The notes under the pieces are model-generated. The model made no database searches. It saw only the letters and a program-made list of their open reading frames with translations, and was not told the origin of the DNA. DNA of 64,000 nt from Arenicellales bacterium (GTDB lineage Bacteria; Pseudomonadota; Gammaproteobacteria; Arenicellales; JAHEKD01), in assembly GCA_965215945.1 (NCBI GenBank), contig CBDCFC010000046.1, positions 175,142 through 239,141 on the forward strand, read 5' to 3'. This document shows, piece after piece, positions 53,288 to 64,000 of this stretch; within the stretch, counting starts at the first letter, position 1, and each line of letters starts with the position of its first letter. Both the position numbers and the translations under genes were made by a program.

Positions 53288-54322
53288 ATGAATGCAACCG
53301 TTGGCATTATTGCAAATCCGGTTTCGGCACGCGACATCAGGCGTTTATTGACTAATGCGTCCAGTCTGCAGATTGCTGACCGTGCCAATATCGTGATGCG
53401 ATTGCTGGCCGCATTGGGTGCAATAGGGATTAAACAAGTGATGATGATGCCTGATAATGGTGGTGTGCGCGGCCATGTACAAAGAGGGATTTTGAGAGAA
53501 TCCAATGCGGGTAACACTCACTGGCCTGAGATCGAATTTTTGGATATGCCGGTCACCTCCTCGGTAGAGGATACGCTTGCCGCTGTTCGTATAATGGTAG
53601 AACAGCAGGTTTCGGCGATCATCGTTTTAGGTGGTGACGGCACCCATCGTGCAGTAGTCAGTGAATGCAAACAGATTCCGGTGGCAGGTTTATCGACAGG
53701 CACAAACAATGCGTTCCCGGATTACCGTGAACCGACGGTCACCGGTTTGGCAACCGGACTTTACGTTGTCGGGCGCATTAACCACCAAAATGCCTGCGTC
53801 GCTAACAAGATGCTTGAAGTTCAAGTAAATGGCGAGCATAATAGATTTATCGCGCTGGTGGATGTTGTATTCACCACCGATCGTTACGTAGGTGCGCGTG
53901 CATTGTGGCGGACCGAAACGTTCACAGAGCTTTATGTAACGTATGGAGAAGCGCACTCAGTTGGGATGTCATCTATTGCTGGTTTGATTCAACCTGTTGA
54001 TCGTCAGGATTTACACGGTCTGAGAATTGAACTCGGTCCGCATAATGAGTGTCCACATACCCTGCTTGCACCGATTGCACCCGGTTTAATGAAGCCGGTT
54101 GGGATCAGGCGTGTCGAACAATTGGTTCCCGGTAGGCTGTTTTCACCTTTGACCCGGGCTGGATCAATTGCGCTGGATGGCGAACGCGAAATCGAATTCA
54201 GTGAAAAAGACACAATTGAAATTTCACTTAGCACACAGGCTTTTTACACAATTGATGTTGAACGTGTCATGTCTTATGCGGCAAATAATCAATTGCTGTT
54301 GTCGGTAAGTGAGACTATTTAA
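53288..54322 (+). CDS. acoX: AcoX-like protein (ATP-NAD kinase fold) of the acetoin operon
   Basis: VGIIANP.S..D, IIVLGGDGT and GT.NAF motifs of the NAD-kinase/diacylglycerol-kinase fold. Sits directly upstream of acoA. Confidence 0.7.
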   Translation: MNATVGIIANPVSARDIRRLLTNASSLQIADRANIVMRLLAALGAIGIKQVMMMPDNGGVRGHVQRGILRESNAGNTHWPEIEFLDMPVTSSVEDTLAAVRIMVEQQVSAIIVLGGDGTHRAVVSECKQIPVAGLSTGTNNAFPDYREPTVTGLATGLYVVGRINHQNACVANKMLEVQVNGEHNRFIALVDVVFTTDRYVGARALWRTETFTELYVTYGEAHSVGMSSIAGLIQPVDRQDLHGLRIELGPHNECPHTLLAPIAPGLMKPVGIRRVEQLVPGRLFSPLTRAGSIALDGEREIEFSEKDTIEISLSTQAFYTIDVERVMSYAANNQLLLSVSETI

Positions 54323-54361
54323 AAATATAGACCACAACAAACAGACTGGGAGAACTTGAAT

Positions 54362-55348
54362 ATGGACGAAGCTAATCCTTTTCCTCTCAATAAAGAGGAA
54401 CTACTAAACGTTTATAGAACCATGCGATCCATTCGTGAATTTGAGGAACGTGTGCATCTGGAATTTGCTAAAGGGGAAATACCGGGGTTTGTGCACTTGT
54501 ATGCCGGAGAGGAAGCCTGTGCCGCGGGTATTATGTATCACCTTCGACCCGACGATCGCATCGCCAGTACGCACCGTGGCCACGGGCACTGTATAGCCAA
54601 GGGTGTGGATATCCACGGCATGATGGCCGAGATTTACGGCAAGGCCAGTGGTGTGTGTGTCGGCAAGGGCGGTTCCATGCATATTGCCGATCTGGACACG
54701 GGCATGATGGGCGCCAACGGGATTCTTGGCGCAGGGGCGCCGCTGGTATGCGGTGCGGCGCTGGCTGCAAAATTCCAGAACAACCAGGGTGTTGCCATCA
54801 GCTTTGTGGGCGACGGGGCTTCAAATCAGGGCATGATGCTGGAAAGTCTCAATCTGGCTACGGTCTGGAATCTGCCGGCCATATTTGTGGTTGAAAATAA
54901 CGGTTATGCCGAATCCACTTCCGCTGAATGGGCGGTTTCCTGCGACAGCTATGTGGACCGGGCATCGGGATTCGGAATGCCGGGCATTTCAGTGGACGGT
55001 TTTGACTTTTTTGCGGTCTATGAGGCTGCCGGCGAAGCGGTTGCACGCGCTCGCGGTGGCGGCGGCCCCAGCCTGATGGAAGTACGAACCGGTCGATTCT
55101 TCGGCCATTTTGAAGGGGATGCGCAAACTTACCGCGGTGAAAATGAAGTCGAAACTATGCGCGAGCAAAGCGATTGCATCAAAATATTTTCAAAGAAAAT
55201 TCTCGATGCGGACGTGGTTGAGCAAAGCGAACTGGATGCCATCGATACTGAGGTACTGGCATTAATCGATGATGCGGTCGAAAAAGCGGTGGCTGCGCCG
55301 GAGCCTGCGGAGGCCGAATTACATACTGACGTTTATGTCAGCTATTAA
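54362..55348 (+). CDS. acoA: Acetoin:acceptor oxidoreductase E1 alpha subunit (TPP-dependent)
   Basis: MRSIREFE, GFVHLYAGEEA, HRGHGHCIAKG and GDGASNQG..ES.N.A..W.LP..FV.ENN TPP motif. Confidence 0.9.
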   Translation: MDEANPFPLNKEELLNVYRTMRSIREFEERVHLEFAKGEIPGFVHLYAGEEACAAGIMYHLRPDDRIASTHRGHGHCIAKGVDIHGMMAEIYGKASGVCVGKGGSMHIADLDTGMMGANGILGAGAPLVCGAALAAKFQNNQGVAISFVGDGASNQGMMLESLNLATVWNLPAIFVVENNGYAESTSAEWAVSCDSYVDRASGFGMPGISVDGFDFFAVYEAAGEAVARARGGGGPSLMEVRTGRFFGHFEGDAQTYRGENEVETMREQSDCIKIFSKKILDADVVEQSELDAIDTEVLALIDDAVEKAVAAPEPAEAELHTDVYVSY

Positions 55349-55374
55349 TCTGAATTAAAAATGAGGAGTGAATA

Positions 55375-56379
55375 ATGGCTAGAACACTGAGTTTTAAAGA
55401 CGCGATAAATGAGGCCCTGGACCAGGAAATGGCCCGCGATGAAAGCGTTATTGTGATGGGCGAAGATGTTGTCGGTGGCACAGGTAGCCCGGGTGAAGAA
55501 GATGCCTGGGGCGGTGTATTAGGCGTGACCAAGGGGCTGTATGCAAAGCACGGAGAGCGCATGATGGATACGCCATTGAGTGAATCCGCCTATGTGGGTG
55601 CCGCAATCGGTGCAGCGACCTGCGGCATGCGTCCGGTGGCCGAATTAATGTTTGTTGATTTTTTTGGGGTCTGTATGGATCAGATTTACAATCAGGCGGC
55701 GAAGTTTCGCTATATGTTCGGCGGCAAGGCTGAAACGCCTGTTGTTATCCGTTGTATGGTGGGCGCCGGTTTTCGGGCAGCCGCACATCATTCGCAGATG
55801 TTAACGTCGATTTTTACCCACATTCCGGGACTGAAAGTCGTACTTCCATCCAATGCCTATGACGCCAAAGGCCTGCTGATTCAATCCATCCGTGATAACG
55901 ACCCGGTGATCTTTTGTGAACATAAAATGCTTTACGGTACCGAGGCGGATGTACCGGAAGAGGCGTATGCGATTCCCTTTGGCGAGGCCGACATACCCCG
56001 TGAAGGCAGTGATATCACAATCGTTTCGCTGGGCGCTATGGTCGGAAAATCCCTTGAGGCAGCCGAAGAGCTTGCCAAAGATGGAATCTCCTGTGAAGTG
56101 ATAGATTTGCGAACAACTTCGCCCATGGATGAAGACACGATTTATGAGAGCGTCGAAAAAACGGGACGACTGGTTGTGGTGGATGAATCCCACCCCCGTT
56201 GTAGTATTGCCTCCGATGTTTCATCACTGGTGGCCCAAAACTGCTTTGGCAATTTGAAAGGTAAAATTCAAATGGTGACCGCGCCGCATGTGCCGCCGCC
56301 ATTCGCTGCCAATCTGGAGGATCTGTACATTCCGGATACCGGGGATATCAATCAGGCGGTCAGAGCCGTTGCTGCTTGA
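55375..56379 (+). CDS. acoB: Acetoin:acceptor oxidoreductase E1 beta subunit
   Basis: Transketolase-like pyrimidine-binding and C-terminal domains (DTPLSE....GAAIGAA..G.RPV.E.MF.DF). 334 aa. Confidence 0.9.
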   Translation: MARTLSFKDAINEALDQEMARDESVIVMGEDVVGGTGSPGEEDAWGGVLGVTKGLYAKHGERMMDTPLSESAYVGAAIGAATCGMRPVAELMFVDFFGVCMDQIYNQAAKFRYMFGGKAETPVVIRCMVGAGFRAAAHHSQMLTSIFTHIPGLKVVLPSNAYDAKGLLIQSIRDNDPVIFCEHKMLYGTEADVPEEAYAIPFGEADIPREGSDITIVSLGAMVGKSLEAAEELAKDGISCEVIDLRTTSPMDEDTIYESVEKTGRLVVVDESHPRCSIASDVSSLVAQNCFGNLKGKIQMVTAPHVPPPFAANLEDLYIPDTGDINQAVRAVAA

Positions 56380-56408
56380 GTGACAACTTTCGTCCTGGCA
56401 AAGAAAAA

Positions 56409-57553
56409 ATGAACAGTACACGGATAGCGGCTATCAAGATGCCCAAATGGGGCTTATCCATGTCCGAAGGTAAAGTAGGCAACTGGTTGGTCGACGTCGG
56501 CGCCACGGTCAACGTGGGCGATGAAATTCTCGATGTAGAGACGGACAAGATTGCCAGTGCCGTAGAAGCCACACAAACGGGTGTGCTGCGGCGACAGGTC
56601 GGAAAATTCGATGAGACCATTCCGGTCGGCGGGCTGCTGGGCGTGCTTGCCGATCCGGCGGTGTCTGAAAGCGACATTGATGCATTCATTGAAGAATTCC
56701 AGGCCAACTTCGTTCCCGAAGAAGACGAAGATGATGACGCGGCAGCCAGTGCTTACGCAACAATAACAATCGATGGAATCCGGCTTCGCTACCTGCAGCA
56801 GGGAGAAGGTGAAGAAAACATCGTACTTATACATGGTTTTGGCGGCGATATCGACAATTGGCTATTCAACCTGAATGAACTCTCGGCAAAAGCGAATGTT
56901 CATGCCCTAGATTTACCGGGGCACGGACACTCTGCCAAGGATATCAGCGAAGGTGGTGTAGAAACGTTGGCACGCCTGGTCGTCGGTTTTATGACTGAGG
57001 TCAATTGTGCACCGGCCCATCTGGTCGGCCATTCTCTGGGTGGAGCGATCGCTCAGCAAATTGCCATAGATCATGGTGAGCAAGTGAAATCGCTAAACCT
57101 GATTGCCAGTGCCGGAGTGGGTAATGAGATTAATCAGGCGTATATTGACGGTTTTATTCAAGCGAACTCCCGCCGCCAACTAAAACCTTTTTTACAACAA
57201 CTGTTTGCGGATACTGAATTGGTCACCCGGCAGATGATTGATGATATTTTAAAATATAAAAGATTGGATGGAGTCAGTCAGGCCTTGCAGACCGTCGGGG
57301 ATGCAAATTTTATAAAGGGTCAGCAGCAGTCTATATTGTTTGATCGCATTAACAATCCGGACCTTCCGGTACAGGTTATTTGGGGCGTGAGGACAAGATA
57401 ATACCCGTTGCTCATGCCGAAGCGGTTGGACAAAACTTACCGGTTGTGATTGTTGATAATGCCGGCCATATGGTCCATATGGAAGCATCAAGCGATGTCA
57501 ACAAGGCACTCTTAGAATTTATGCAACTGTATAAAAGCGCGGATGGGGCATGA
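56409..57553 (+). pseudogene. acoC: AcoC (lipoyl domain + alpha/beta-hydrolase E2-like component) interrupted by a -1 frameshift near the 3' end
   Basis: Lipoyl motif VETDKIASAVEA. LIHGFGGD, GHSLGG. The annotated frame stops at 57401 (..VIWGVRTR*). The next frame, from 57389, reads EDKIIPVAHAEAVGQNLPVVIVDNAGHMVHMEASSDVNKALLEFM... to TGA 57551-57553. Confidence 0.8.
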
Positions 57554-58010
57554 GACGAAAAAGTTCAATGTCAGAGTCTATGGTCTGCTGATTGATCAAA
57601 ACAGGGTGTTGCTGGTAGACGAGTTTGTCAAGAATAGCAAAATCACCAAGTTTCCGGGAGGGGGATTGGAGTGGGGAGAAGGTCCGGTCGAGTGCCTGAT
57701 ACGTGAGTTCCGGGAAGAAACCGGCATCGATGTCAGGGTGGAAAGGCACATTTATACCACCGACTTTTTTCAGCCGTCCGCATTTGTTCCCGGGGATCAA
57801 ATCATCAGCATCTATTACCGGGTTTCGCCTCTCGGTCTGCTTGCTGACAACCCCATTGAAGTAGATCAAGATCGTCTCCAACCCAACGAGGAAATTCTCG
57901 GTTTCCACTGGATCGATTTGTCGCAACTTGAGGTTGATCGCGTATCTTTGCCAATTGACAAGTACGTTGTGGAACAAATTCTTGAATCCGAGGGTGGGTT
58001 TATTGCGTAA
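57543..58010 (+). CDS. NUDIX hydrolase
   Basis: Nudix box GGGLEWGEGPVECLIREFREETG. 155 aa. Confidence 0.85.
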   Translation: MGHETKKFNVRVYGLLIDQNRVLLVDEFVKNSKITKFPGGGLEWGEGPVECLIREFREETGIDVRVERHIYTTDFFQPSAFVPGDQIISIYYRVSPLGLLADNPIEVDQDRLQPNEEILGFHWIDLSQLEVDRVSLPIDKYVVEQILESEGGFIA

Positions 58011-58415: not shown

Positions 58416-58481
58416 TGGTACCCCGACCAGGAGTCGAACCTGGGACCTGTCGCTTAGAGCCTGTCCCGGACTTGATCCGGG
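58416..58481 (-). other. tRNA-derived 3' fragment (T-arm + acceptor 3' strand + CCA), likely att-site remnant marking an island boundary
   Basis: The minus strand reads ...CCCGGATCAAGTCCGGGACAGGCTCTAAGCGACAGGTC CCAGG TTCGACT CCTGG TCGGGGT A CCA. The T-stem/loop and CCA end are canonical. No matching 5' acceptor strand (ACCCCGA) or D-arm lies upstream, so it is not an intact tRNA. Confidence 0.6.
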
Positions 58482-58698: not shown

Positions 58699-58989
58699 AT
58701 GAACCGCAGCCGTGCAATTGAACTTCTCAAACGCTCAAAACCTGAGCTGATGGACCGCTTTGGTGTGACCAAGCTTGCCTTGTTTGGTTCGACTGTGCGT
58801 GATGAGGCGAAGGAACAAAGCGATCTTGATGTCCTGGTCGCGTTTGATGGCCCGGCAACTTCCAAACGTTATTTTGGTGTCCAATTCTATTTGGAAGATT
58901 TATTTAATTGTTCGGTTGATCTGGTAACAGAAAAAGCACTGCGCCCAGAACTGCGTCCATATATCGAAAGCGAAGCTGTCCATGTCTGA
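58699..58989 (+). CDS. mntA: MNT-type nucleotidyltransferase (MntA antitoxin)
   Basis: LFGSTVRDEAKEQSDLDVLV (GS...DxD) minimal nucleotidyltransferase motif. 96 aa. Overlaps the HEPN gene by 8 nt. Confidence 0.85.
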   Translation: MNRSRAIELLKRSKPELMDRFGVTKLALFGSTVRDEAKEQSDLDVLVAFDGPATSKRYFGVQFYLEDLFNCSVDLVTEKALRPELRPYIESEAVHV

Positions 58990-59317
58990 GCGGCAATGGC
59001 AGTTTTACATTAGTGATATGCTTGCTTTTGCAGAAAAGGTTATTGCCTACACTGATGGATTCAGCCAACAAGAATTTGTGGAAAGTGAGTTAAATTACGA
59101 TGCCACGCTTCGCAACTTGGAGCTCATCGGGGAAGCTGCTCGTCATATCCCTGATTCTGTCCGCAACGAAAATGATGAGATTCCTTGGCGTATGATTATC
59201 GCTACACGCAACCGTTTAATCCACGGCTATCTGGGTATTGATGACGATACGCTGTGGAGCATTATTCAGGACGATATTCCCATGCTTCTTGAGGAATTGA
59301 AAAAATTAGAATCTTGA
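58982..59317 (+). CDS. hepT: HEPN/DUF86 toxin (HepT)
   Basis: RNRLIHGY (R-x4-H HEPN motif). 111 aa. Canonical pairing with the upstream MNT gene. Confidence 0.85.
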   Translation: MSERQWQFYISDMLAFAEKVIAYTDGFSQQEFVESELNYDATLRNLELIGEAARHIPDSVRNENDEIPWRMIIATRNRLIHGYLGIDDDTLWSIIQDDIPMLLEELKKLES

Positions 59318-59344: not shown

Positions 59345-60751
59345 TTGACCCATATGACTTTAAAGCAATCTGAACCCGACAGTCTCACTGGACAGAGAGA
59401 ACCACCTCCAGATGTTCTATCCTCAGATACTCATGTTGTGCGTCATACCCAACAAGATGCACTGACGGATTTGCGTTTAGTATTGCGTTTGGTAGAACAG
59501 AAAAAAATCCAAGTAAGTGAGAAAACAGGTCGTCCCAGCAAAGCCTGTACGCTCATGTTAGAGGAAGCTCTCACCAACAATGATTTTTATAAAATTCGAC
59601 TAAAGAAAAACAAGTGGGATCAGGAGATAGGGGCGATTAAATCTTTCGCCTGGCCGCTTTTAGTTCAAGCTTCTGGACTTGCTATACGACAAGGGCGCTA
59701 TCTAATCCTGAGCAAAACAGGAATAAAGTTATTCGTATTACCGCCTGCCGAAAACATCCGCCTGATCTGGGAAAAATGGCTGACATCAAAGTTTATTGAC
59801 GAATTCAATAGAATTGACGAGATAAAGGGACAATATTCCAAAGGTGGAAATCTAACTCCCGTAGTACATCGTCGAAAGGTAGTTAATCGAGCCCTAGCTG
59901 ATTGTGAGGTAAACGGCTGGATATCTGTCGATGAATTTTTCAGTTTCATGAAATCTGATCGGTATGACTTTGATATCACTTATGATCCATGGGGACTTTA
60001 TATTGAAGATCAGGAATATGGTTCATTAGGATATGATGGTTTTCATGAATGGACATTCCTCCAGGGGCGCTATGTCCTATGCCTATTATTCGAATATGCC
60101 GCAACCTTGGGAATGATTGATTTGGTCTATTCTAGTCCAGTAGGTGCTCGAGATGATTTTCGCTATAACTGGGGGACAGATGAGTTGGATTATTTAAGTC
60201 GCTATGATGGTTTGCAATATTTCAGAGTGACGCCGTTAGGAGAATATTGCCTTGGTAATTCCGATAGTTTTTCTCCCAATGAGACTGAAACTGAACATCG
60301 ATGTTCAATTGCAGTGATGCCAAGTCTGAGAATTAATTTTAAGAACGGGAAGCCTTCTTTAGATGTCTTGCAACTGTTAGACATTTGGGCAATACAGGAG
60401 TCAGAAGATTGCTGGAAGCTCGATAGGATGAAATCTATCAACGCAATCGAGCGTGGTTTCGATATTAACTTGCTTGAAACATTTCTTGCTAAGCACGACG
60501 ACCAACCGTTGCCAGAAAAAGTAGAATCTTTTATAGATAAATGCAGAAAGCAAGGTGCTGCCCTTAAACTTGATGGAAGCGTGCTTCTAATTGATTGTTT
60601 TTCAAAAGGCCTTGCTTGTGAATTAGCCGAGCACAAGGAAACAAGGAGGTTGTGCCAACGTGCCGGCGAAACACAGTTGATTATTAAGTCAACAGATGAA
60701 AAAAAATTTCGCCGAGCTATTAATATTATCGGTTATGGAATGCCTCTGTAA
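59345..60751 (+). CDS. Hypothetical protein resembling the N-terminal DNA-binding region of bacterial XPB/helicase-associated proteins
   Basis: 468 aa. FAWPLLVQASGLAIRQGRYLILSKTGIKL...IWEKWL and C-terminal WKLDRMKSINAIERGFDINLLETFLAKHDDQPLPEKVESFIDKCRKQG...LACELAEHKE...LIIKSTDEKKFRRAINIIGYGMP recall that domain type, from memory and not searched. ATG at 59354 is an alternative start. Confidence 0.45.
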   Translation: MTHMTLKQSEPDSLTGQREPPPDVLSSDTHVVRHTQQDALTDLRLVLRLVEQKKIQVSEKTGRPSKACTLMLEEALTNNDFYKIRLKKNKWDQEIGAIKSFAWPLLVQASGLAIRQGRYLILSKTGIKLFVLPPAENIRLIWEKWLTSKFIDEFNRIDEIKGQYSKGGNLTPVVHRRKVVNRALADCEVNGWISVDEFFSFMKSDRYDFDITYDPWGLYIEDQEYGSLGYDGFHEWTFLQGRYVLCLLFEYAATLGMIDLVYSSPVGARDDFRYNWGTDELDYLSRYDGLQYFRVTPLGEYCLGNSDSFSPNETETEHRCSIAVMPSLRINFKNGKPSLDVLQLLDIWAIQESEDCWKLDRMKSINAIERGFDINLLETFLAKHDDQPLPEKVESFIDKCRKQGAALKLDGSVLLIDCFSKGLACELAEHKETRRLCQRAGETQLIIKSTDEKKFRRAINIIGYGMPL

Positions 60752-60825
60752 TGTTGTTATTGAACATATTTTCATGAATAATCGTCAAGATTTAGTCTCG
60801 CCAGACACCGTAGTTACAAAATTCT

Positions 60826-62985
60826 ATGTCCAGACTATCCAGACAACAACGTGTCAATTTATTTTGCTCTCTTTTTCGTGCTCGGGAGGATGTTTTTGCC
60901 AGACGTTGGGAGAATGACGAAACGGGGGGAGCTGGTTATGCTCCAGTTTTCACAGATTGGCAGAAAAAATCATACAAACCGCTATCGCAAAGTGATTTTG
61001 AGAATCATTTGATTGGTAATACGGTCCTAGGAGTTTATCCGTTATTAAAAGATCATAAATCACATTTCATCGCTGCCGACTTTGATAAGAAACAATGGCA
61101 AGAGGATGTAAAGAGCTTCGTTGTTATATGTGGTAAATACCAGTTACCTATTTCTATAGAAATCTCACGTTCTGGCAACGGCGCGCATGCGTGGAGTTTT
61201 TTCGAGAACTCATTTCCAGCATCTAAATCTCGTAAGATATTTCTTGCACTGTTACGCGAAGCAGGATGTATTGATGACTATAGTCATGACGAAAGCTTTG
61301 ACAGATTATTTCCGAATCAAGACCTCCACTCTGGCAAAGGGCTTGGTAATCTTATTGCACTGCCATTACAAGGGCTGTCTCGCAAGGAAGGCAAAACAGT
61401 TTTTGTTAATCCAGTAACTCTAAATCCGTACTCGGATCAGTGGAGTTACCTTACAAGCGTTGAGCAGGTCTCCAGTAAAACGTTTGACAATTTGTATCTA
61501 CAATTTACTGAAGATTCTGGTGTACTCCAAAACAACTCATCATCGTTGGAACATGAGGCTTCGAAAAAACTGCAAATTGAAGTCTCAAATATGCTGAAAC
61601 TGCCAAAACATCAAGTTTCACCCATTCTCGTGTCTCATTTGCGTGATAGTCTGAATTTTTTCAATAGTGAATATTTTGCAAAATCTAAGATTGGTTTTTC
61701 GACACATACAATCGAGAAATTTTTCAAAAGTGTTTATGCTGATGATTACTTTGTATATGTCCCAAGGGGGCATATCAATACCTTGATAAATTTTCTCATT
61801 GAACATGACATTGCGTTTGGGATTTCAGATAAGACAATCACTCATGAAGAAATAGGCCTTAATCAAGATATTTCACTCTATCCCTTTCAGGAAAAAGCAG
61901 TGCGCGCTTTTAATAATCACAACCAAGGTATTCTTGTTGCACCGCCTGGTGCAGGCAAAACAGTGATGGGATTAATGATAGCTTTATCTAAGAAGCAGCC
62001 AGCGTTAATCATTACTCACCGGCAGAACATTTTTGATCAATGGGTGGAGAGTATAGAGAATTTTTTTGCAATCCCCAAAAATAATATCGGTCGTTATGGC
62101 AGTTCAACGAAGAAAGTAAGAACACCGTTTACAGTTGCCATGATCCAAACACTTGCACGTTCAGATGATCTGACAAAGATTTTAGATCAATTTGGCTGTG
62201 TGCTTATTGACGAGTGTCATCATGTTCCGGCGAAAACATATCGTAGTGTCGTTTCACAAATATCATCGAAATATCTCTATGGTCTGACAGCTACGCCAAA
62301 ACGCAAATACAATGATGAAAAATTAATTCATGCGTATCTGGGAGAAACAGTCCATACGTTTTCCAGTGATTACAAAGAAACCAATGTTTCTGATATGCAG
62401 GAACCTGCCCAGACTACGATCACGATTCTCAGAAGTTTTTTCTCAGTGCCTTATGATGTAAAAGTTTCCGACTTCACCCACATTCAGAAATTACTATCGC
62501 TCGATGTTCAAAGAAATTATCTTATTGCTAAGACTATTCAATCAGAGGTGGCCAAGAAGCGTCAGATTTTGGTTCTGTGTCAGTGTAAAGAACATGTAAA
62601 GGCTCTATGGCATTTCCTTAAGGGCTCTGTTGAAGTTTTTGCTATGACTGGCAGTCTGTCTGCTAAACAGAAAAAATATCGAACAACTCGTATCAAAAAT
62701 GGCACTTTTCAAGTGGTGCTTGCGACTGCTCAGTTATTCGGAGAAGGTGTGGACATTGCACACTTCCATTCATTGTTTCTTGTCTCGCCACATTCTTTTG
62801 AAAGTAAAATTATTCAATACATTGGCCGTTTACGCGGGAATGGAAATGATAAACGAGTTTTTGACGTTCGTGACCCACAAATTACATTGCTTGAAAAATC
62901 ATTCAAGAAACGTATGACGCTGTACAACAAACTACTTAAATCTTGTGATGTTATATCAGTGTCTGAAAACGACTTATTACTTTGA
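60826..62985 (+). CDS. Archaeo-eukaryotic-primase-like N-terminal domain fused to an SF2 (XPB/type III Res-like) DExH helicase
   Basis: N-terminus: FRAREDVFARRWE, VLGVYPLL, FIAADFD (DxD), SRSGNGAHAW (sGxGxH), FDRLFPNQD. C-terminus: VAPPGAGKT (motif I), LIDECHH (II), GLTATP (III), FGEGVDI (V), QYIGRLRG (VI). 719 aa. Confidence 0.7.
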   Translation: MSRLSRQQRVNLFCSLFRAREDVFARRWENDETGGAGYAPVFTDWQKKSYKPLSQSDFENHLIGNTVLGVYPLLKDHKSHFIAADFDKKQWQEDVKSFVVICGKYQLPISIEISRSGNGAHAWSFFENSFPASKSRKIFLALLREAGCIDDYSHDESFDRLFPNQDLHSGKGLGNLIALPLQGLSRKEGKTVFVNPVTLNPYSDQWSYLTSVEQVSSKTFDNLYLQFTEDSGVLQNNSSSLEHEASKKLQIEVSNMLKLPKHQVSPILVSHLRDSLNFFNSEYFAKSKIGFSTHTIEKFFKSVYADDYFVYVPRGHINTLINFLIEHDIAFGISDKTITHEEIGLNQDISLYPFQEKAVRAFNNHNQGILVAPPGAGKTVMGLMIALSKKQPALIITHRQNIFDQWVESIENFFAIPKNNIGRYGSSTKKVRTPFTVAMIQTLARSDDLTKILDQFGCVLIDECHHVPAKTYRSVVSQISSKYLYGLTATPKRKYNDEKLIHAYLGETVHTFSSDYKETNVSDMQEPAQTTITILRSFFSVPYDVKVSDFTHIQKLLSLDVQRNYLIAKTIQSEVAKKRQILVLCQCKEHVKALWHFLKGSVEVFAMTGSLSAKQKKYRTTRIKNGTFQVVLATAQLFGEGVDIAHFHSLFLVSPHSFESKIIQYIGRLRGNGNDKRVFDVRDPQITLLEKSFKKRMTLYNKLLKSCDVISVSENDLLL

Positions 62986-63030: not shown

Positions 63031-63260
63031 TGGTATAAGGAGTGCAAAAGTGGATAAAAGAGGATTATTGATACAATAAGTTGTATTGGGCGTGTAAAAA
63101 ATAACTATTTGCCTCCTTTTTGGTGTATCATAACTCATTGAAAATTAAGTAAAAATTTCGTAATTTTGCTCACCATCTTGAGGGGGTAGTGTGCAAAAAG
63201 TGGTATAAACTGATTTTAAGTTACTGTGAATGTTGAAAAGTGATGAAAAGAGGATTTATT
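63031..63260. repeat. Cluster of short direct repeats next to the integrase 3' end (candidate arm-type or regulatory sites)
   Basis: GTGCAAAAGTGGATAAAAGAGGATTATT (63042-63069) against GAAAAGTGATGAAAAGAGGATTTATT (63235-63260). GTGCAAAAAGTGGTATAAAC at 63191-63210. TGGTATAA also at 63031. Confidence 0.4.
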
Positions 63261-63262
63261 TT

Positions 63263-64000
63263 TCAGCCAACTTTATCAACTAAATCCTCAGCTCGAAGAT
63301 GTGTGTAACGTCTAAGCATTGCTAAATCTTTGTGCCCGGTAATTGCGCTGACTTCCATAATTGAAAGTCCTTTTTCAAAGAATCGACTAGTGGCTTCATG
63401 TCGCAGATCGTGGAAACGGAAATCCTCCATGTCAGCTTCTTTTCTGACGCGTTCGAAGGCTCGTGTAATTGAGTCTGGTCTCATGATAAAGACTTTGCCT
63501 GAGATATTCCTTGGCATGTCTTTGAGCAGTTTGTATGCTTTTTCAGTTAAGGGGATGATCCGGTCTTCTGTATTTTTTGTGTCATAGAGAAGGGCAGTTC
63601 GTTTTGATAGATTTATGTCTTTCCATCTAAGTTTGGCAATTTCTCCACGGCGCATGGCTGTTTCAATTGCCAGAATAATGATGTTGTAAATCTCGCCTCC
63701 GTAAGCTTGGGCGGCATCAAGTATCCGTTCTTCTTCATCGCCGACTAGTCTCCGGTCTCTACCTTTAGGTTGAGTTGGAATGGATACTGAATCAACTGGA
63801 TTGCCTCTAGGTAGATATATCTCCCATTCCTTTTGTGCTTGTACAAGAACCCTCCTGATGAGGAGCAAATCTTTGCGCACAGTATGCCCTTTAACTTTCT
63901 TACGGCGCAAATCTCTGAAATTAGCAAGGATCGAAGGGGTTAGGGCAGTAAGGCTAAGATGGCCTAATTCACGTTTGATAGTTTTACACTGTGATATGAC
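63263..64000 (-). CDS. int: Tyrosine recombinase / phage-type integrase, N-terminus beyond the window
   Basis: Catalytic region RRGEIAKLRW, HDLRHEATSRF and GHKDLAMLRRYTH (R..HxxR..Y). The frame stays open from 63910 to the window end (...TPSILANFRDLRRKK...). Confidence 0.85.
   Translation of the reverse strand, partial: VISQCKTIKRELGHLSLTALTPSILANFRDLRRKKVKGHTVRKDLLLIRRVLVQAQKEWEIYLPRGNPVDSVSIPTQPKGRDRRLVGDEEERILDAAQAYGGEIYNIIILAIETAMRRGEIAKLRWKDINLSKRTALLYDTKNTEDRIIPLTEKAYKLLKDMPRNISGKVFIMRPDSITRAFERVRKEADMEDFRFHDLRHEATSRFFEKGLSIMEVSAITGHKDLAMLRRYTHLRAEDLVDKVG

Follow-up and report, generated by a model that had tools for sequence, protein, structure and literature searches.

CAPP-like Prim-Pol fused to an XPB-like helicase, beside a p52/Tfb2-like protein, in a small integrase island

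Introduction

Near the 3′ end of the window (the whole stretch of 64,000 nt analysed here), two co-oriented genes, ORF A and ORF B, are separated by a gap of 74 nt. The earlier note on this DNA had read them as a module in which a primase-like head is joined to an XPB-like helicase, while the XPB N-terminal region is encoded by a separate gene. This raises the question of what each protein is, whether the two genes belong together, and whether they serve conflict with foreign DNA, replication or repair.

Genomic context

A small, GC-poor island carries the locus as its cargo, with a tRNA-type att site and a tyrosine integrase as mobiliser (Table 1). The visible part of the island measures at least 5.6 kb, with a GC content of 0.40 compared to 0.47 in the flanking chromosome. 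A tRNA 3′-end-like fragment is probably an att remnant that marks the left island edge. Its pattern, GGTTCGANTCC-N11-CCA, has a single match in the window, where 0.00 are expected from shuffles, and neither ARAGORN nor Rfam detected a complete tRNA gene.

The island also possesses a HepT/MntA cassette, located 5′ of ORF A and not in the gap between ORF A and ORF B, whose two genes share an overlap of 8 nt. The MntA-like gene additionally matches NCBIfam MntA_antitoxin (1.4e-10, under the cut-off) and the PADLOC candidate PDC-S09 (3.8e-29), and the HepT-like gene matches NCBIfam HepT_toxin (7.5e-9, likewise under the cut-off). Translation of the integrase is free of stops up to position 64000; it is therefore not truncated, and its N-terminus lies beyond the window. 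The open reading frames with their 74-nt gap, the eight motifs of ORF B and, in the surroundings, the HepT/MntA genes, integrase and tRNA fragment were all recovered where the earlier note had placed them, and the island context that it described was confirmed.

Table 1. Features of the island and of the proteins encoded by ORF A and ORF B.
Feature	Position	Strand	Evidence
tRNA 3′-end-like fragment (T-loop, 3′ acceptor strand, CCA), 25-mer	58416..58440	-	pattern GGTTCGANTCC-N11-CCA
MntA-like minimal nucleotidyltransferase, antitoxin of type VII HepT/MntA pair	58699..58989	+	Pfam NTP_transf_2 8.5e-16
HepT-like HEPN RNase toxin	58982..59317	+	Pfam HepT-like 3.5e-28
ORF A, p52/Tfb2-like protein, 468 aa	59345..60751	+	AF2 fold and family alignment
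ORF A C-terminal Helicase_C_3 ('clutch'/XPB-NTD-type) domain	about 60437-60658	+	
ORF B, fusion of CAPP-like Prim-Pol (AEP-TOTE) and XPB-like SF2 helicase, 719 aa	60826..62985	+	
AEP/Prim-Pol catalytic domain, ORF B residues 9-222	60850..61491	+	PF22548 4.5e-74
Small alpha/beta domain ahead of helicase core, ORF B residues ~247-338	61564..61839	+	AF2 secondary structure, confident
SF2 helicase core, ORF B residues ~345-705	61858..62940	+	ResIII 2.6e-28, Helicase_C 2.3e-10
Tyrosine integrase	63263..64000	-	Phage_integrase 9.2e-32

Domains and motifs of ORF B

The N-terminal domain of ORF B is a full-length member of the Pfam family PF22548 AEP-TOTE (249 bits, cut-off 27), which is the conflict-system AEP label mentioned in the earlier note. 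Its Prim-Pol domain matches the CRISPR-associated PrimPol profile of PADLOC with 1.4e-65; PADLOC has no system model for the family besides this profile. The domain carries the motifs AADFD (DxD, residues 83-87), SRSGNGAHAW (sGxGxH, 114-123) and FDRLFPNQD (motif III, 158-166). It is recognisably related by sequence to the CAPP structures 7nqd/7nqf (phmmer, 1e-11), and in the AF2 model of ORF B (pLDDT 82.8) it superposes on CAPP structures with a Foldseek TM of 0.79-0.80 at 25% identity.

The helicase part possesses GAGKT (Walker A, 375-379), DECHH (462-466), TATP (488-491), FGEGVDI (638-644) and QYIGRLRG (motif VI, 664-671). Catalytic residues in the ORF B motifs are invariant in the family alignment (n=19 sequences). 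Together with the profile matches in Table 1, which lie far beyond chance, and the CAPP superposition, this bears out the earlier reading of an AEP head on a complete XPB-type SF2 core.

The solved structures nearest to the helicase core are XPBII, AfXPB, UvsW and SauUSI. Taken with the small domain that precedes it, the core of the AF2 model matches archaeal XPB chains in their entirety (E 1e-22), and in the fold search the alignments to archaeal XPB chains of 437-441 residues cover 480-500 columns. Since this is about the chain length, the alignment appears to include the archaeal XPB N-terminal domain. The small domain is thus predicted to be DRD-like, placed in the model where archaeal XPB and UvsW carry their N-terminal DRD-type domain; it has no profile similarity to ORF A. 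Compared to XPB, ORF B lacks only the Helicase_C_3-type N-terminal domain. The description of the pair as a split, re-wired XPB needs correction in that ORF B keeps a predicted DRD-like domain of its own.

ORF A resembles p52/Tfb2

The earlier note had likened ORF A to the XPB N-terminal region. A Helicase_C_3 domain is indeed present: the match of ORF A itself is weak (E 1.3e-3, under the gathering score), and the domain was matched in 12 of the 12 family members tested (best 4.7e-9). As a whole, however, the modelled protein is closer to p52/Tfb2 than to a detached XPB N-terminus. Foldseek with the AF2 model (mean pLDDT 75) returned TFIIH p52/Tfb2 chains first (E 1e-6, prob 1.0) and the XPB N-terminal region after them, and the p52/Tfb2 match extends over most of the ORF A length. 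This likeness is at the level of the fold, with a 12-sequence alignment underlying the model, and no sequence search from ORF A recovered p52.

The family search with ORF A yielded 3,541 matches, typically of ~590-640 aa, and no member of the family was found in the 2.9 million contigs of IMG/VR. According to the alignment, ORF A lacks the SAP-like N-terminus (~130 residues) of its family, of which there is no trace upstream, and its first ~28 residues are unlike the family and modelled with low confidence. The remainder is an intact frame of 440 residues that keeps all family-invariant residues. ORF A may be decaying.

Association of ORF A and ORF B

A two-gene module is only partly supported, and the pair is not conserved as such. 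Within 10 kb of the ORF B relatives at 80 genome loci there is no ORF A-family gene, and the loci of nine closer relatives (55-79% identity) have no ORF A-type gene either. Seen from the other gene, an AEP-helicase occurs at about 6 of 84 ORF A-family loci. These fall into three separate clades with differing gene orders (the window; L004/L100; L165/L159/L164). Where an ORF B relative does accompany an ORF A-type gene, it comes from another subfamily, whose members are longer and start with an N-terminal leader. We regard ORF A as a facultative accessory and not a core component.

It is a serious possibility, if not the one we prefer, that the adjacency is incidental, in which case ORF B, alone as it is in nearly all relatives, would be the functional unit and ORF A the 5′-truncated remnant of an unrelated island gene, with no two-gene system. 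The lost N-terminus and the family-unrelated first residues of ORF A agree with this, as does the absence of the partner from all 89 loci of ORF B relatives. Most ORF A-family genes are likewise solitary or lie beside RecD2-like helicases, CcbP-like genes, metH and others. Nevertheless, the rest of ORF A is intact, and three clades show AEP-helicases recurring beside ORF A-family genes, with orientations that vary, at a rate estimated to be far above that of random gene pairs. The pairing of a p52-like protein with a neighbouring XPB-like motor is also specific and meaningful.

Distribution and neighbourhood of the ORF B family

The homologue search with ORF B gave 7,981 matches, the best 120 of which are all AEP-TOTE+SF2 fusions, mostly of ~700 aa. 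The fusion is widespread: homologues of ~700 aa number in the thousands and occur in Bacteroidota, in CPR bacteria and on plasmids. It is neither rare nor unnamed, being classified in Pfam (PF22548) and noted as an architecture in the CAPP paper (PMC8211822). The earlier note had asked whether the pair matches a named and characterised system: ORF B is filed under a named AEP-TOTE/'CAPP-helicase' family, which is catalogued but uncharacterised, and we found no experimental characterisation of the fusion family in the literature.

The gene just 5′ of ORF B relatives is usually of toxin or Abi type. Among 48 same-strand genes immediately upstream at the genome loci we found AbiEii (9), Fic (9), SLFN_AlbA_2+HATPase_c_4 (5), HipA (3), RhuM (1) and YhcG (1); other 5′ neighbours are HigB (on an Acinetobacter plasmid), RHH+PIN, DUF433 and, in the island described here, MntA/HepT. 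Full-length relatives were absent from 50,697 phage records and numbered ~28 in the 2.9 million IMG/VR contigs.

Proposed role

We consider the locus to be cargo of the island for opening and priming DNA, formed by ORF B with the facultative ORF A, and acting in conflict or defence rather than in replication, with a probability of about 0.5. ORF B would be a single-chain 'open-and-prime' enzyme, composed of an XPB-type dsDNA translocase/helicase and a CAPP-related Prim-Pol. The motor would unwind the duplex locally, and the fused Prim-Pol would start a primer on the exposed strand and then extend it. By analogy with p52 and XPB in TFIIH, ORF A may use winged-helix domains to bind DNA, and may anchor the ORF B motor or stimulate it. 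In TFIIH, p52 anchors XPB and stimulates its ATPase via the clutch/XPB-NTD interface (reviewed in PMC13024598). The Helicase_C_3-type N-terminal domain with which XPB contacts p52 is missing from ORF B, which speaks against the analogy.

A role against incoming DNA seems likelier than the element's own replication because the ORF B family usually lies directly 3′ of toxin or abortive-infection genes, because full-length copies are absent from the searched phage genomes and rare in IMG/VR, and because the closest studied relatives are associated with immunity. However, toxin-antitoxin genes nearby may be no more than a sign of a variable hotspot.

Alternative roles

An unlikely alternative, though one with several points in its favour, is that the genes serve to replicate a minimal integrative element. 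Once the integrase has excised the island, ORF B would open an origin and prime replication of the circular form, ORF A would be an origin-binding or loading factor, and HepT/MntA a stabilising addiction module. On mobile elements, fusions of an AEP with a helicase generally serve as replicases (PMC5862659; PMC11724360), and the tiny island consists of an integrase, a primase-helicase and a toxin-antitoxin pair. Also in agreement are an integrase within 6 kb of the ORF B relative at 7 of the 80 genome loci and in L001, and near-full-length relatives on 98 plasmid records. However, the surroundings of most relatives contain neither an integrase nor another mobility gene, and some relatives lie amid housekeeping genes, for example dnaG and rpoD at L167. 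On an inspected plasmid, pDSJ06, the ORF B relative co-exists with a standard IncFII RepA gene 2 kb away. No iteron- or origin-like repeat array adjoins ORF A or ORF B, and the deposited phage genomes searched, in which replicases of mobile elements are common, contain no full-length member of the family. Moreover, deletion of the Prim-Pol of Thermus ICETh2 left replication of the element unchanged and raised transformation 100-1000-fold (PMC7693054).

DNA-damage tolerance or repair, in the host or the element, appears improbable; here the XPB-like motor would open stalled forks or lesions, and the Prim-Pol would re-prime or perform translesion or end-joining synthesis. Prim-Pols are commonly active in repair (PMC11724360), XPB and p52 function in repair and transcription, and two of the closest ORF B relatives adjoin SOS-mutagenesis cassettes (LexA/ImuB/DnaE2-type or S24/IMS). 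This association is nevertheless limited to those two loci, toxins and Abi genes rather than repair genes dominate the neighbourhood, and a patchy, island-borne spread is atypical of core repair.

The Pfam name of the N-terminal domain would suggest a canonical TOTE conflict system, composed of a TPR-OB sensor, a TBP-domain protein and an effector, here ORF B. This was rejected as very improbable: TPR, S1/CSD/OB and TBP domains are found in none of the five island genes, and the TPR-OB and TBP partner genes that define such systems, with the components as listed in PMC12458937, are missing from the locus and from all 48 upstream neighbours of the surveyed ORF B relatives.

Comparison with known systems

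Among the closest known systems are the class CAPP_A enzymes of 'CAPP-Helicase' type (Zabrady et al. 2021, PMC8211822; 7nqd/7nqf/7p9j). CAPPs are primase-polymerases, and the CAPP-Helicase shares with ORF B a homologous Prim-Pol domain and the domain order, Prim-Pol followed by helicase. Prim-Pol plus helicase is the most prevalent non-CRISPR CAPP architecture and is found in mobile elements (PMC8211822). Unlike for CAPPs, neither the island nor the 64,000-nt window yielded any cas gene or CRISPR array, and ORF B scores 102 bits against NCBIfam PrimPol_Msp, with a cut-off of 200. The XPB-like nature of the ORF B helicase and its p52-like neighbour go beyond the analysis in PMC8211822.

ORF B has the AEP domain in common with the TOTE systems of Aravind, Iyer & Burroughs (2022), cited in PMC12458937; the label AEP-TOTE goes back to a computational prediction.

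XPB/Ssl2/Rad25 with p52/Tfb2 in TFIIH, archaeal XPB-Bax1 and bacterial XPB are comparable through the helicase core and preceding small domain of ORF B, which superpose on archaeal XPB, and through the p52/Tfb2-like fold of ORF A. The Helicase_C_3-type domain is N-terminal in bacterial and eukaryotic XPB and C-terminal in ORF A, and in ORF B the XPB N-terminal domain is swapped for the Prim-Pol. ORF B is no XPB orthologue (NCBIfam repair_heli_XPB, 87 bits with a cut-off of 610; rad25, 63 with a cut-off of 329), the RED motif of XPB is not literally conserved (TATPKRKYNDEK), and in contrast to XPB-Bax1, the ORF A/ORF B locus has no Bax1-like nuclease.

Also comparable are the Ppol/Hel of Thermus ICETh2 (PMC7693054) and the pAgo-associated AgaPP with its PriCT-DUF3987 helicase (PMC11724360), which also combine a Prim-Pol and a helicase on a mobile element or island. 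Their reported roles are to limit the uptake of foreign DNA, or replication and repair (PMC7693054; PMC11724360). In these systems the proteins are separate and the helicases are of SF3/DUF3987 or other type, whereas in ORF B the Prim-Pol is fused to an SF2 XPB-like motor.

Organisation of the island

The genes of the p52/Tfb2-like protein ORF A and of the primase-helicase fusion ORF B have the positions, sizes, strand and intergenic gap claimed for them in the earlier note, and the proposed surroundings (HepT/MntA pair, integrase and tRNA fragment) are each present. The GC content is 0.40 from the tRNA-like fragment to the window end vs 0.47 in the adjoining chromosome, and searches of the window found no complete tRNA gene. 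We interpret the locus as a small island that has integrated here; the intact tRNA and the second copy of att probably lie past position 64000. Plasmid searches revealed no close DNA relatives of the island, and the scan for promoters and terminators gave nothing above chance.

Upstream of ORF A, the island harbours an adjacent MNT nucleotidyltransferase gene and HEPN RNase gene, the arrangement of type VII HepT/MntA pairs. The two genes overlap and match NTP_transf_2 (8.5e-16) and HepT-like (3.5e-28) in Pfam, while the NCBIfam equivalog scores (41 and 35.5) are below the cut-off of 60. The MntA-like gene also matches the PADLOC candidate PDC-S09.

The window end falls inside the open frame of the tyrosine integrase; the gene is thus cut by the window, and the mechanically listed 215-aa ORF represents just the C-terminal portion of a longer protein. 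A truncated integrase was rejected, the apparent shortness being run-off at the window edge. The integrase is unrelated to the short integrase beside a Cupriavidus homologue of ORF A. Between ORF B and the integrase there is an imperfect direct repeat, possibly a regulatory site or an arm-type site for a recombinase. To the left of the island (53288-58010), the chromosome encodes an apparent acetoin/2-oxoacid dehydrogenase cluster, as judged from translations only.

Features of the island and of the adjoining chromosome (window positions)
Feature	Position	Strand	Remarks
E1 alpha	54356-55348		translation only
E1 beta	55375-56379		translation only
Lipoyl/hydrolase-type E2-like ORF	56376-57401		translation only
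NUDIX-like ORF	57543-58010		translation only
tRNA T-loop, 3' acceptor strand and CCA	58416-58440	-	25-mer, unique; 0.00 matches expected from shuffles
MntA-like/HepT-like overlapping gene pair	58699-59317
ORF A	59345-60751	+	468 aa
ORF B	60826-62985	+	719 aa; gap after ORF A 74 nt
21-nt imperfect direct repeat, first copy	63046-63066		AAAAGTGGATAAAAGAGGATT
21-nt imperfect direct repeat, second copy	63236-63256		AAAAGTGATGAAAAGAGGATT
Tyrosine integrase	63263-64000	-	frame open to window end

Primase-polymerase and helicase domains of ORF B

ORF B possesses a Prim-Pol domain homologous to that of MpCAPP, the Marinitoga CRISPR-associated primase-polymerase (CAPP). Residues 9-222 correspond to Pfam PF22548, 'TOTE conflict system, Archaeo-Eukaryotic Primase domain' (E 4.5e-74; 249.3 bits vs a gathering cut-off of 27; profile positions 2-229 of 230), which is the conflict-system AEP label half remembered in the earlier note. 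The primase region also matches the PADLOC profile for CRISPR-associated PrimPol, PDLC01465 (1.4e-65), and, by sequence, the Marinitoga CAPP Prim-Pol domain (7nqd/7nqf, E 1.4e-11 to 2.3e-11). The AF2 model of ORF B (pLDDT 82.8) resembles these structures with TM 0.79-0.80 (target-normalised), rmsd of about 3.9 and 25% identity. Because the model has a CAPP-like fold, the concern that structure prediction would reveal no AEP fold can be set aside.

All primase and helicase motifs noticed earlier were located in ORF B. Their catalytic residues do not vary across an alignment of 19 family sequences: the AEP motifs DxD, sGxGxH and motif III are conserved throughout, and the invariant residues comprise D85, D87, S116-G117-N118-G119, H121 and D159 in the Prim-Pol, and G377-K378-T379, D462-E463-C464-H465-H466, T488-A489-T490-P491, Q664, G667 and R668 in the helicase.

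Residues ~345-705 form an SF2 core, with matches to ResIII, DEAD and Helicase_C. Its best solved relatives, in sequence and fold, are archaeal XPB, eukaryotic XPB/Ssl2, T4 UvsW and the SauUSI helicase. The top Foldseek matches of ORF B are StXPBII, AfXPB and eukaryotic XPB (E 1e-22 to 1e-17), and the model contains a DRD-like domain together with both RecA lobes, as in the XPB-type fold. A confidently modelled alpha/beta domain (AF2, residues ~247-338) lies between primase and helicase. As the alignments to archaeal XPB span nearly the whole chain (about 480-500 aligned columns in Foldseek vs 437-441 chain residues), this linker probably corresponds to the DRD-type domain at the N-terminus of XPB. 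The linker and ORF A share no domain according to hhalign (probability 0.3%).

Judged by its profile scores, ORF B is XPB-like and not an XPB orthologue. The curated cut-offs for XPB/Rad25 are not reached (NCBIfam repair_heli_XPB, 87.4 bits vs 610; rad25, 63.3 bits vs 328.7), and the match to repair_heli_XPB is confined to profile positions 178-467 of 548, which indicates that the XPB N-terminal domain of the full-length family is missing. Profile searches of ORF B found no Helicase_C_3-type domain.

A p52/Tfb2-like protein encoded by ORF A

ORF A belongs to a family with 3,541 matches, whose members normally have 590-640 aa. The sole sequence signal in ORF A is a weak Helicase_C_3 (PF13625) match at residues 365-438; the same domain was matched in twelve out of twelve family members (best 4.7e-9). 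Searches of PDB sequences gave nothing by phmmer, and nothing at E<=10 by profile. No match was obtained in NCBIfam, PHROGs or PADLOC. Pfam Tfb2 did not match any of the 12 family members at E<=1, so the family is not recognisable by sequence as TFIIH p52/Tfb2.

The AF2 model of ORF A (pLDDT 75, pTM 0.59) was built from a 12-sequence alignment. The 15 best PDB matches in Foldseek were all p52/Tfb2 chains, including human and yeast, the remainder presumably being Chaetomium p52/Tfb2 entries (E 1e-6 to 3e-4, probability 0.99-1.0, 320-480 aligned columns). XPB N-terminal regions come after them in the ranking. TM values to p52/Tfb2 are only 0.2-0.3 because the domains are flexibly linked, and, given these values and the mean pLDDT, the model gives moderate support to a p52-like fold, with a winged-helix array and a C-terminal clutch domain. 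The partner had been described as XPB-N-terminal-like, and some sources annotate relatives of ORF A as 'Helicase XPB/Ssl2 N-terminal domain-containing protein'. The Helicase_C_3 domain agrees with that description, but the top Foldseek matches make p52/Tfb2-like a better label for the modelled protein than 'detached XPB N-terminus'.

ORF A lacks the first ~130 residues of the family, including a SAP-like motif present in homologues of the alignment, and the ~28 residues at its own start show no relation to the family. The apparently short homologues L122 and L153 still encode the N-terminus upstream, whereas tblastn found no remnant upstream in the window. The 5' part of ORF A therefore appears to be missing, with the break immediately behind the HepT stop codon. 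The start codon is TTG, or ATG three codons later, 28-37 nt past the HepT stop and with no obvious Shine-Dalgarno sequence (59345-59430). These features fit a 5' truncation where the gene meets the toxin-antitoxin cassette.

Association of ORF A and ORF B

The adjacency of the two genes, interpreted in the earlier note as a two-gene module, is real and recurs in three clades, but it is not conserved. No ORF A-family gene was found within 10 kb at any of 80 genome loci of ORF B relatives (37-47% identity), nor at any of the nine closer relatives placed on contigs (55-79% identity). ORF B does not need ORF A.

The survey of ORF A relatives covered the window, 80 metagenome loci and four further loci. 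An AEP-TOTE helicase gene lies near the ORF A-family gene at L004/L005, L100, L165, L159, L164 and in the window: directly upstream at L100, divergent at L004, about 2 kb off at L165, and as decayed fragments at L159 and L164. The helicase-associated homologues belong to three separate clades of a distance tree, and in two of these the helicase is present at about half of the loci whose flanks are long enough. These helicases come from another subfamily, whose members are longer and begin with an N-terminal leader. At L004:3725-6100, L100:2424-4955 and L165:4532-7411 they have 791-959 aa, exceeding the ORF B of the window, and the extra N-terminal leader looks like a coiled coil. The gene order at L100 is helicase, ORF A homologue and MNT-type nucleotidyltransferase. 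We regard the association of ORF A with AEP-helicases as real but facultative and lineage-restricted.

Most copies of the ORF A family are solitary. Other recurrent neighbours are a CcbP-like protein (6 loci) and a divergent RecD2-like helicase (5 loci), so the p52-like family may accompany more than one kind of helicase. The RecD2-like protein is an SF1 helicase, seen at L002:5676-10684 and four other loci, e.g. L128. In the window, the toxin-antitoxin cassette is located upstream of ORF A and not directly before ORF B, which weakly suggests that the two genes are handled as a single unit.

Distribution and neighbours of ORF B relatives

A search for ORF B relatives yielded 7,981 proteins at E<=1e-10. 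The best 120 of these all possess PF22548 and helicase domains, most have ~700 aa, and many come from CPR bacteria and Bacteroidota. The genome scan gave at least 595 loci. Copies covering >=80% of the protein occur in 98 plasmid records and in none of 50,697 deposited phage genomes. The 2.9 million IMG/VR contigs yielded only about 28 copies of full length.

At 48 genome loci a same-strand gene ends <=400 nt upstream of the ORF B relative. These genes include those for AbiEii (nine out of 48), Fic (9), SLFN_AlbA_2+HATPase_c_4 (5), HipA (3), RhuM (1) and YhcG/DUF1016 (1). AbiEi-type antitoxin genes are present further upstream in some loci, and other upstream genes encode HigB with a regulator (Acinetobacter plasmid), RHH+PIN, DUF433 and Bro-N. 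A co-directional toxin/Abi-type gene upstream is usual at L006-L085, and was also seen at L172:6129-9268 and L001:7197-10148. The MntA/HepT pair of the window fits this rule. The same toxin/Abi gene set is often embedded, by hitch-hiking, in type I restriction-modification operons.

SOS-mutagenesis cassettes adjoin two of the closest relatives of ORF B (L001:11737-17698; L169:2242-5587). One cassette encodes a LexA-like protein, ImuB/IMS and a DnaE2-like polymerase, the other an S24 peptidase, IMS and an RNase_T-UvrC_M protein.

Predicted function

A conflict function of ORF B is favoured on four counts: the family lies among toxin/Abi genes, it is missing from deposited phage genomes, it has CRISPR-associated relatives, and a Thermus mobile-element Prim-Pol offers a precedent, as it had no effect on element replication, yet restricted DNA uptake (PMC7693054). 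Replication of the small mobile element by ORF B is a serious alternative, in line with the integrase, the carriage on plasmids and the general rule for AEP-helicase fusions (PMC5862659); however, we found no convincing origin-like repeats, and mobility genes are frequently absent near ORF B relatives. A role in DNA repair is hinted at only, by the two relatives beside SOS-mutagenesis cassettes.

Both the Prim-Pol and the XPB-type motor have intact catalytic motifs, and a p52-like gene adjoins them in a tRNA-site island that also holds a toxin-antitoxin pair. In the proposed mechanism, the motor of ORF B would open duplex DNA and the fused Prim-Pol would prime on the exposed strand. Within TFIIH, XPB is anchored and its ATPase stimulated through a pseudo-symmetric pairing of its N-terminal domain with the p52 'clutch' domain (PMC13024598); by analogy, ORF A may hold the motor of ORF B in place or stimulate it. 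This analogy is limited, as ORF B lacks the domain that p52 normally contacts and ORF A is truncated. In its most far-reaching form, ORF A and ORF B would constitute a bacterial p52-XPB-like holoenzyme, in which a primase-polymerase replaces the XPB N-terminal domain and the p52-like subunit both loads and activates the duplex-opening motor, so that the Prim-Pol primes on foreign DNA that is otherwise double-stranded, as a new immune effector with the upstream toxin cassette. We consider this unlikely, with a probability of roughly 15%.

If the holoenzyme reading is true, the locus would show that the p52-XPB regulatory pair of eukaryotic TFIIH has a prokaryotic precedent; if the pairing is incidental, it is merely another island-borne member of a catalogued family. 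Two leads emerge. One is a Prim-Pol::XPB-like enzyme abundant in Bacteroidota, CPR bacteria, Proteobacteria and on plasmids, whose steady position behind toxin/Abi cassettes makes it a good candidate for a conflict function. The other is a p52/Tfb2-like bacterial family found repeatedly, not obligatorily, beside XPB-like motors, which is relevant to the prokaryotic ancestry of the XPB-p52 module in TFIIH. The two proteins also offer a simple system for cofactor control of an XPB-type translocase.

Comparison with known systems

In PMC12458937, a TOTE system is defined by a TPR-OB protein, a TBP-domain protein and an effector. TPR, S1 and CSD domains were not matched in any of the five island genes up to position 64000, nor was a TBP domain; the fold of ORF A matches p52/Tfb2 rather than TBP. 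TPR-OB is likewise missing from the listed families (25/29) matched by the 48 upstream neighbours of ORF B relatives. Since neither TPR-OB nor TBP genes were found in the window or among these neighbours, a canonical TOTE system was rejected. Genomic association with cas1/cas2 and a CRISPR array, typical of CAPP, was not found either: PADLOC matched no Cas protein among the island genes, the 64-kb window contains no tandem array and no Rfam CRISPR-DR match, and ORF B scores 102 bits vs a cut-off of 200 for NCBIfam PrimPol_Msp. The only PADLOC matches were the CRISPR-associated PrimPol profile, generic helicases and PDC-S09.

The earlier note considered the pairing of a primase with an SF2 helicase unusual. 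The fusion is real, but it is widespread and already named in Pfam and in the CAPP paper (PMC8211822), which lists a 'CAPP-Helicase' type and reports the helicase-bearing architecture as the commonest among non-CRISPR CAPP homologues, in mobile elements. With this listing and the naming of PF22548, the Prim-Pol::XPB-like fusion is catalogued and named. A match to a system both named and characterised was another concern raised; our literature search found neither experimental work on the fusion, nor characterisation of the ORF A or ORF B family, nor work under AEP-TOTE or on TOTE with a primase. With the family named and the module not conserved, the locus is less novel than first estimated. 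ORF B adds a member to a catalogued family for which we found no experimental study, and the locus as a whole, owing to its p52-like neighbour, is a variant.
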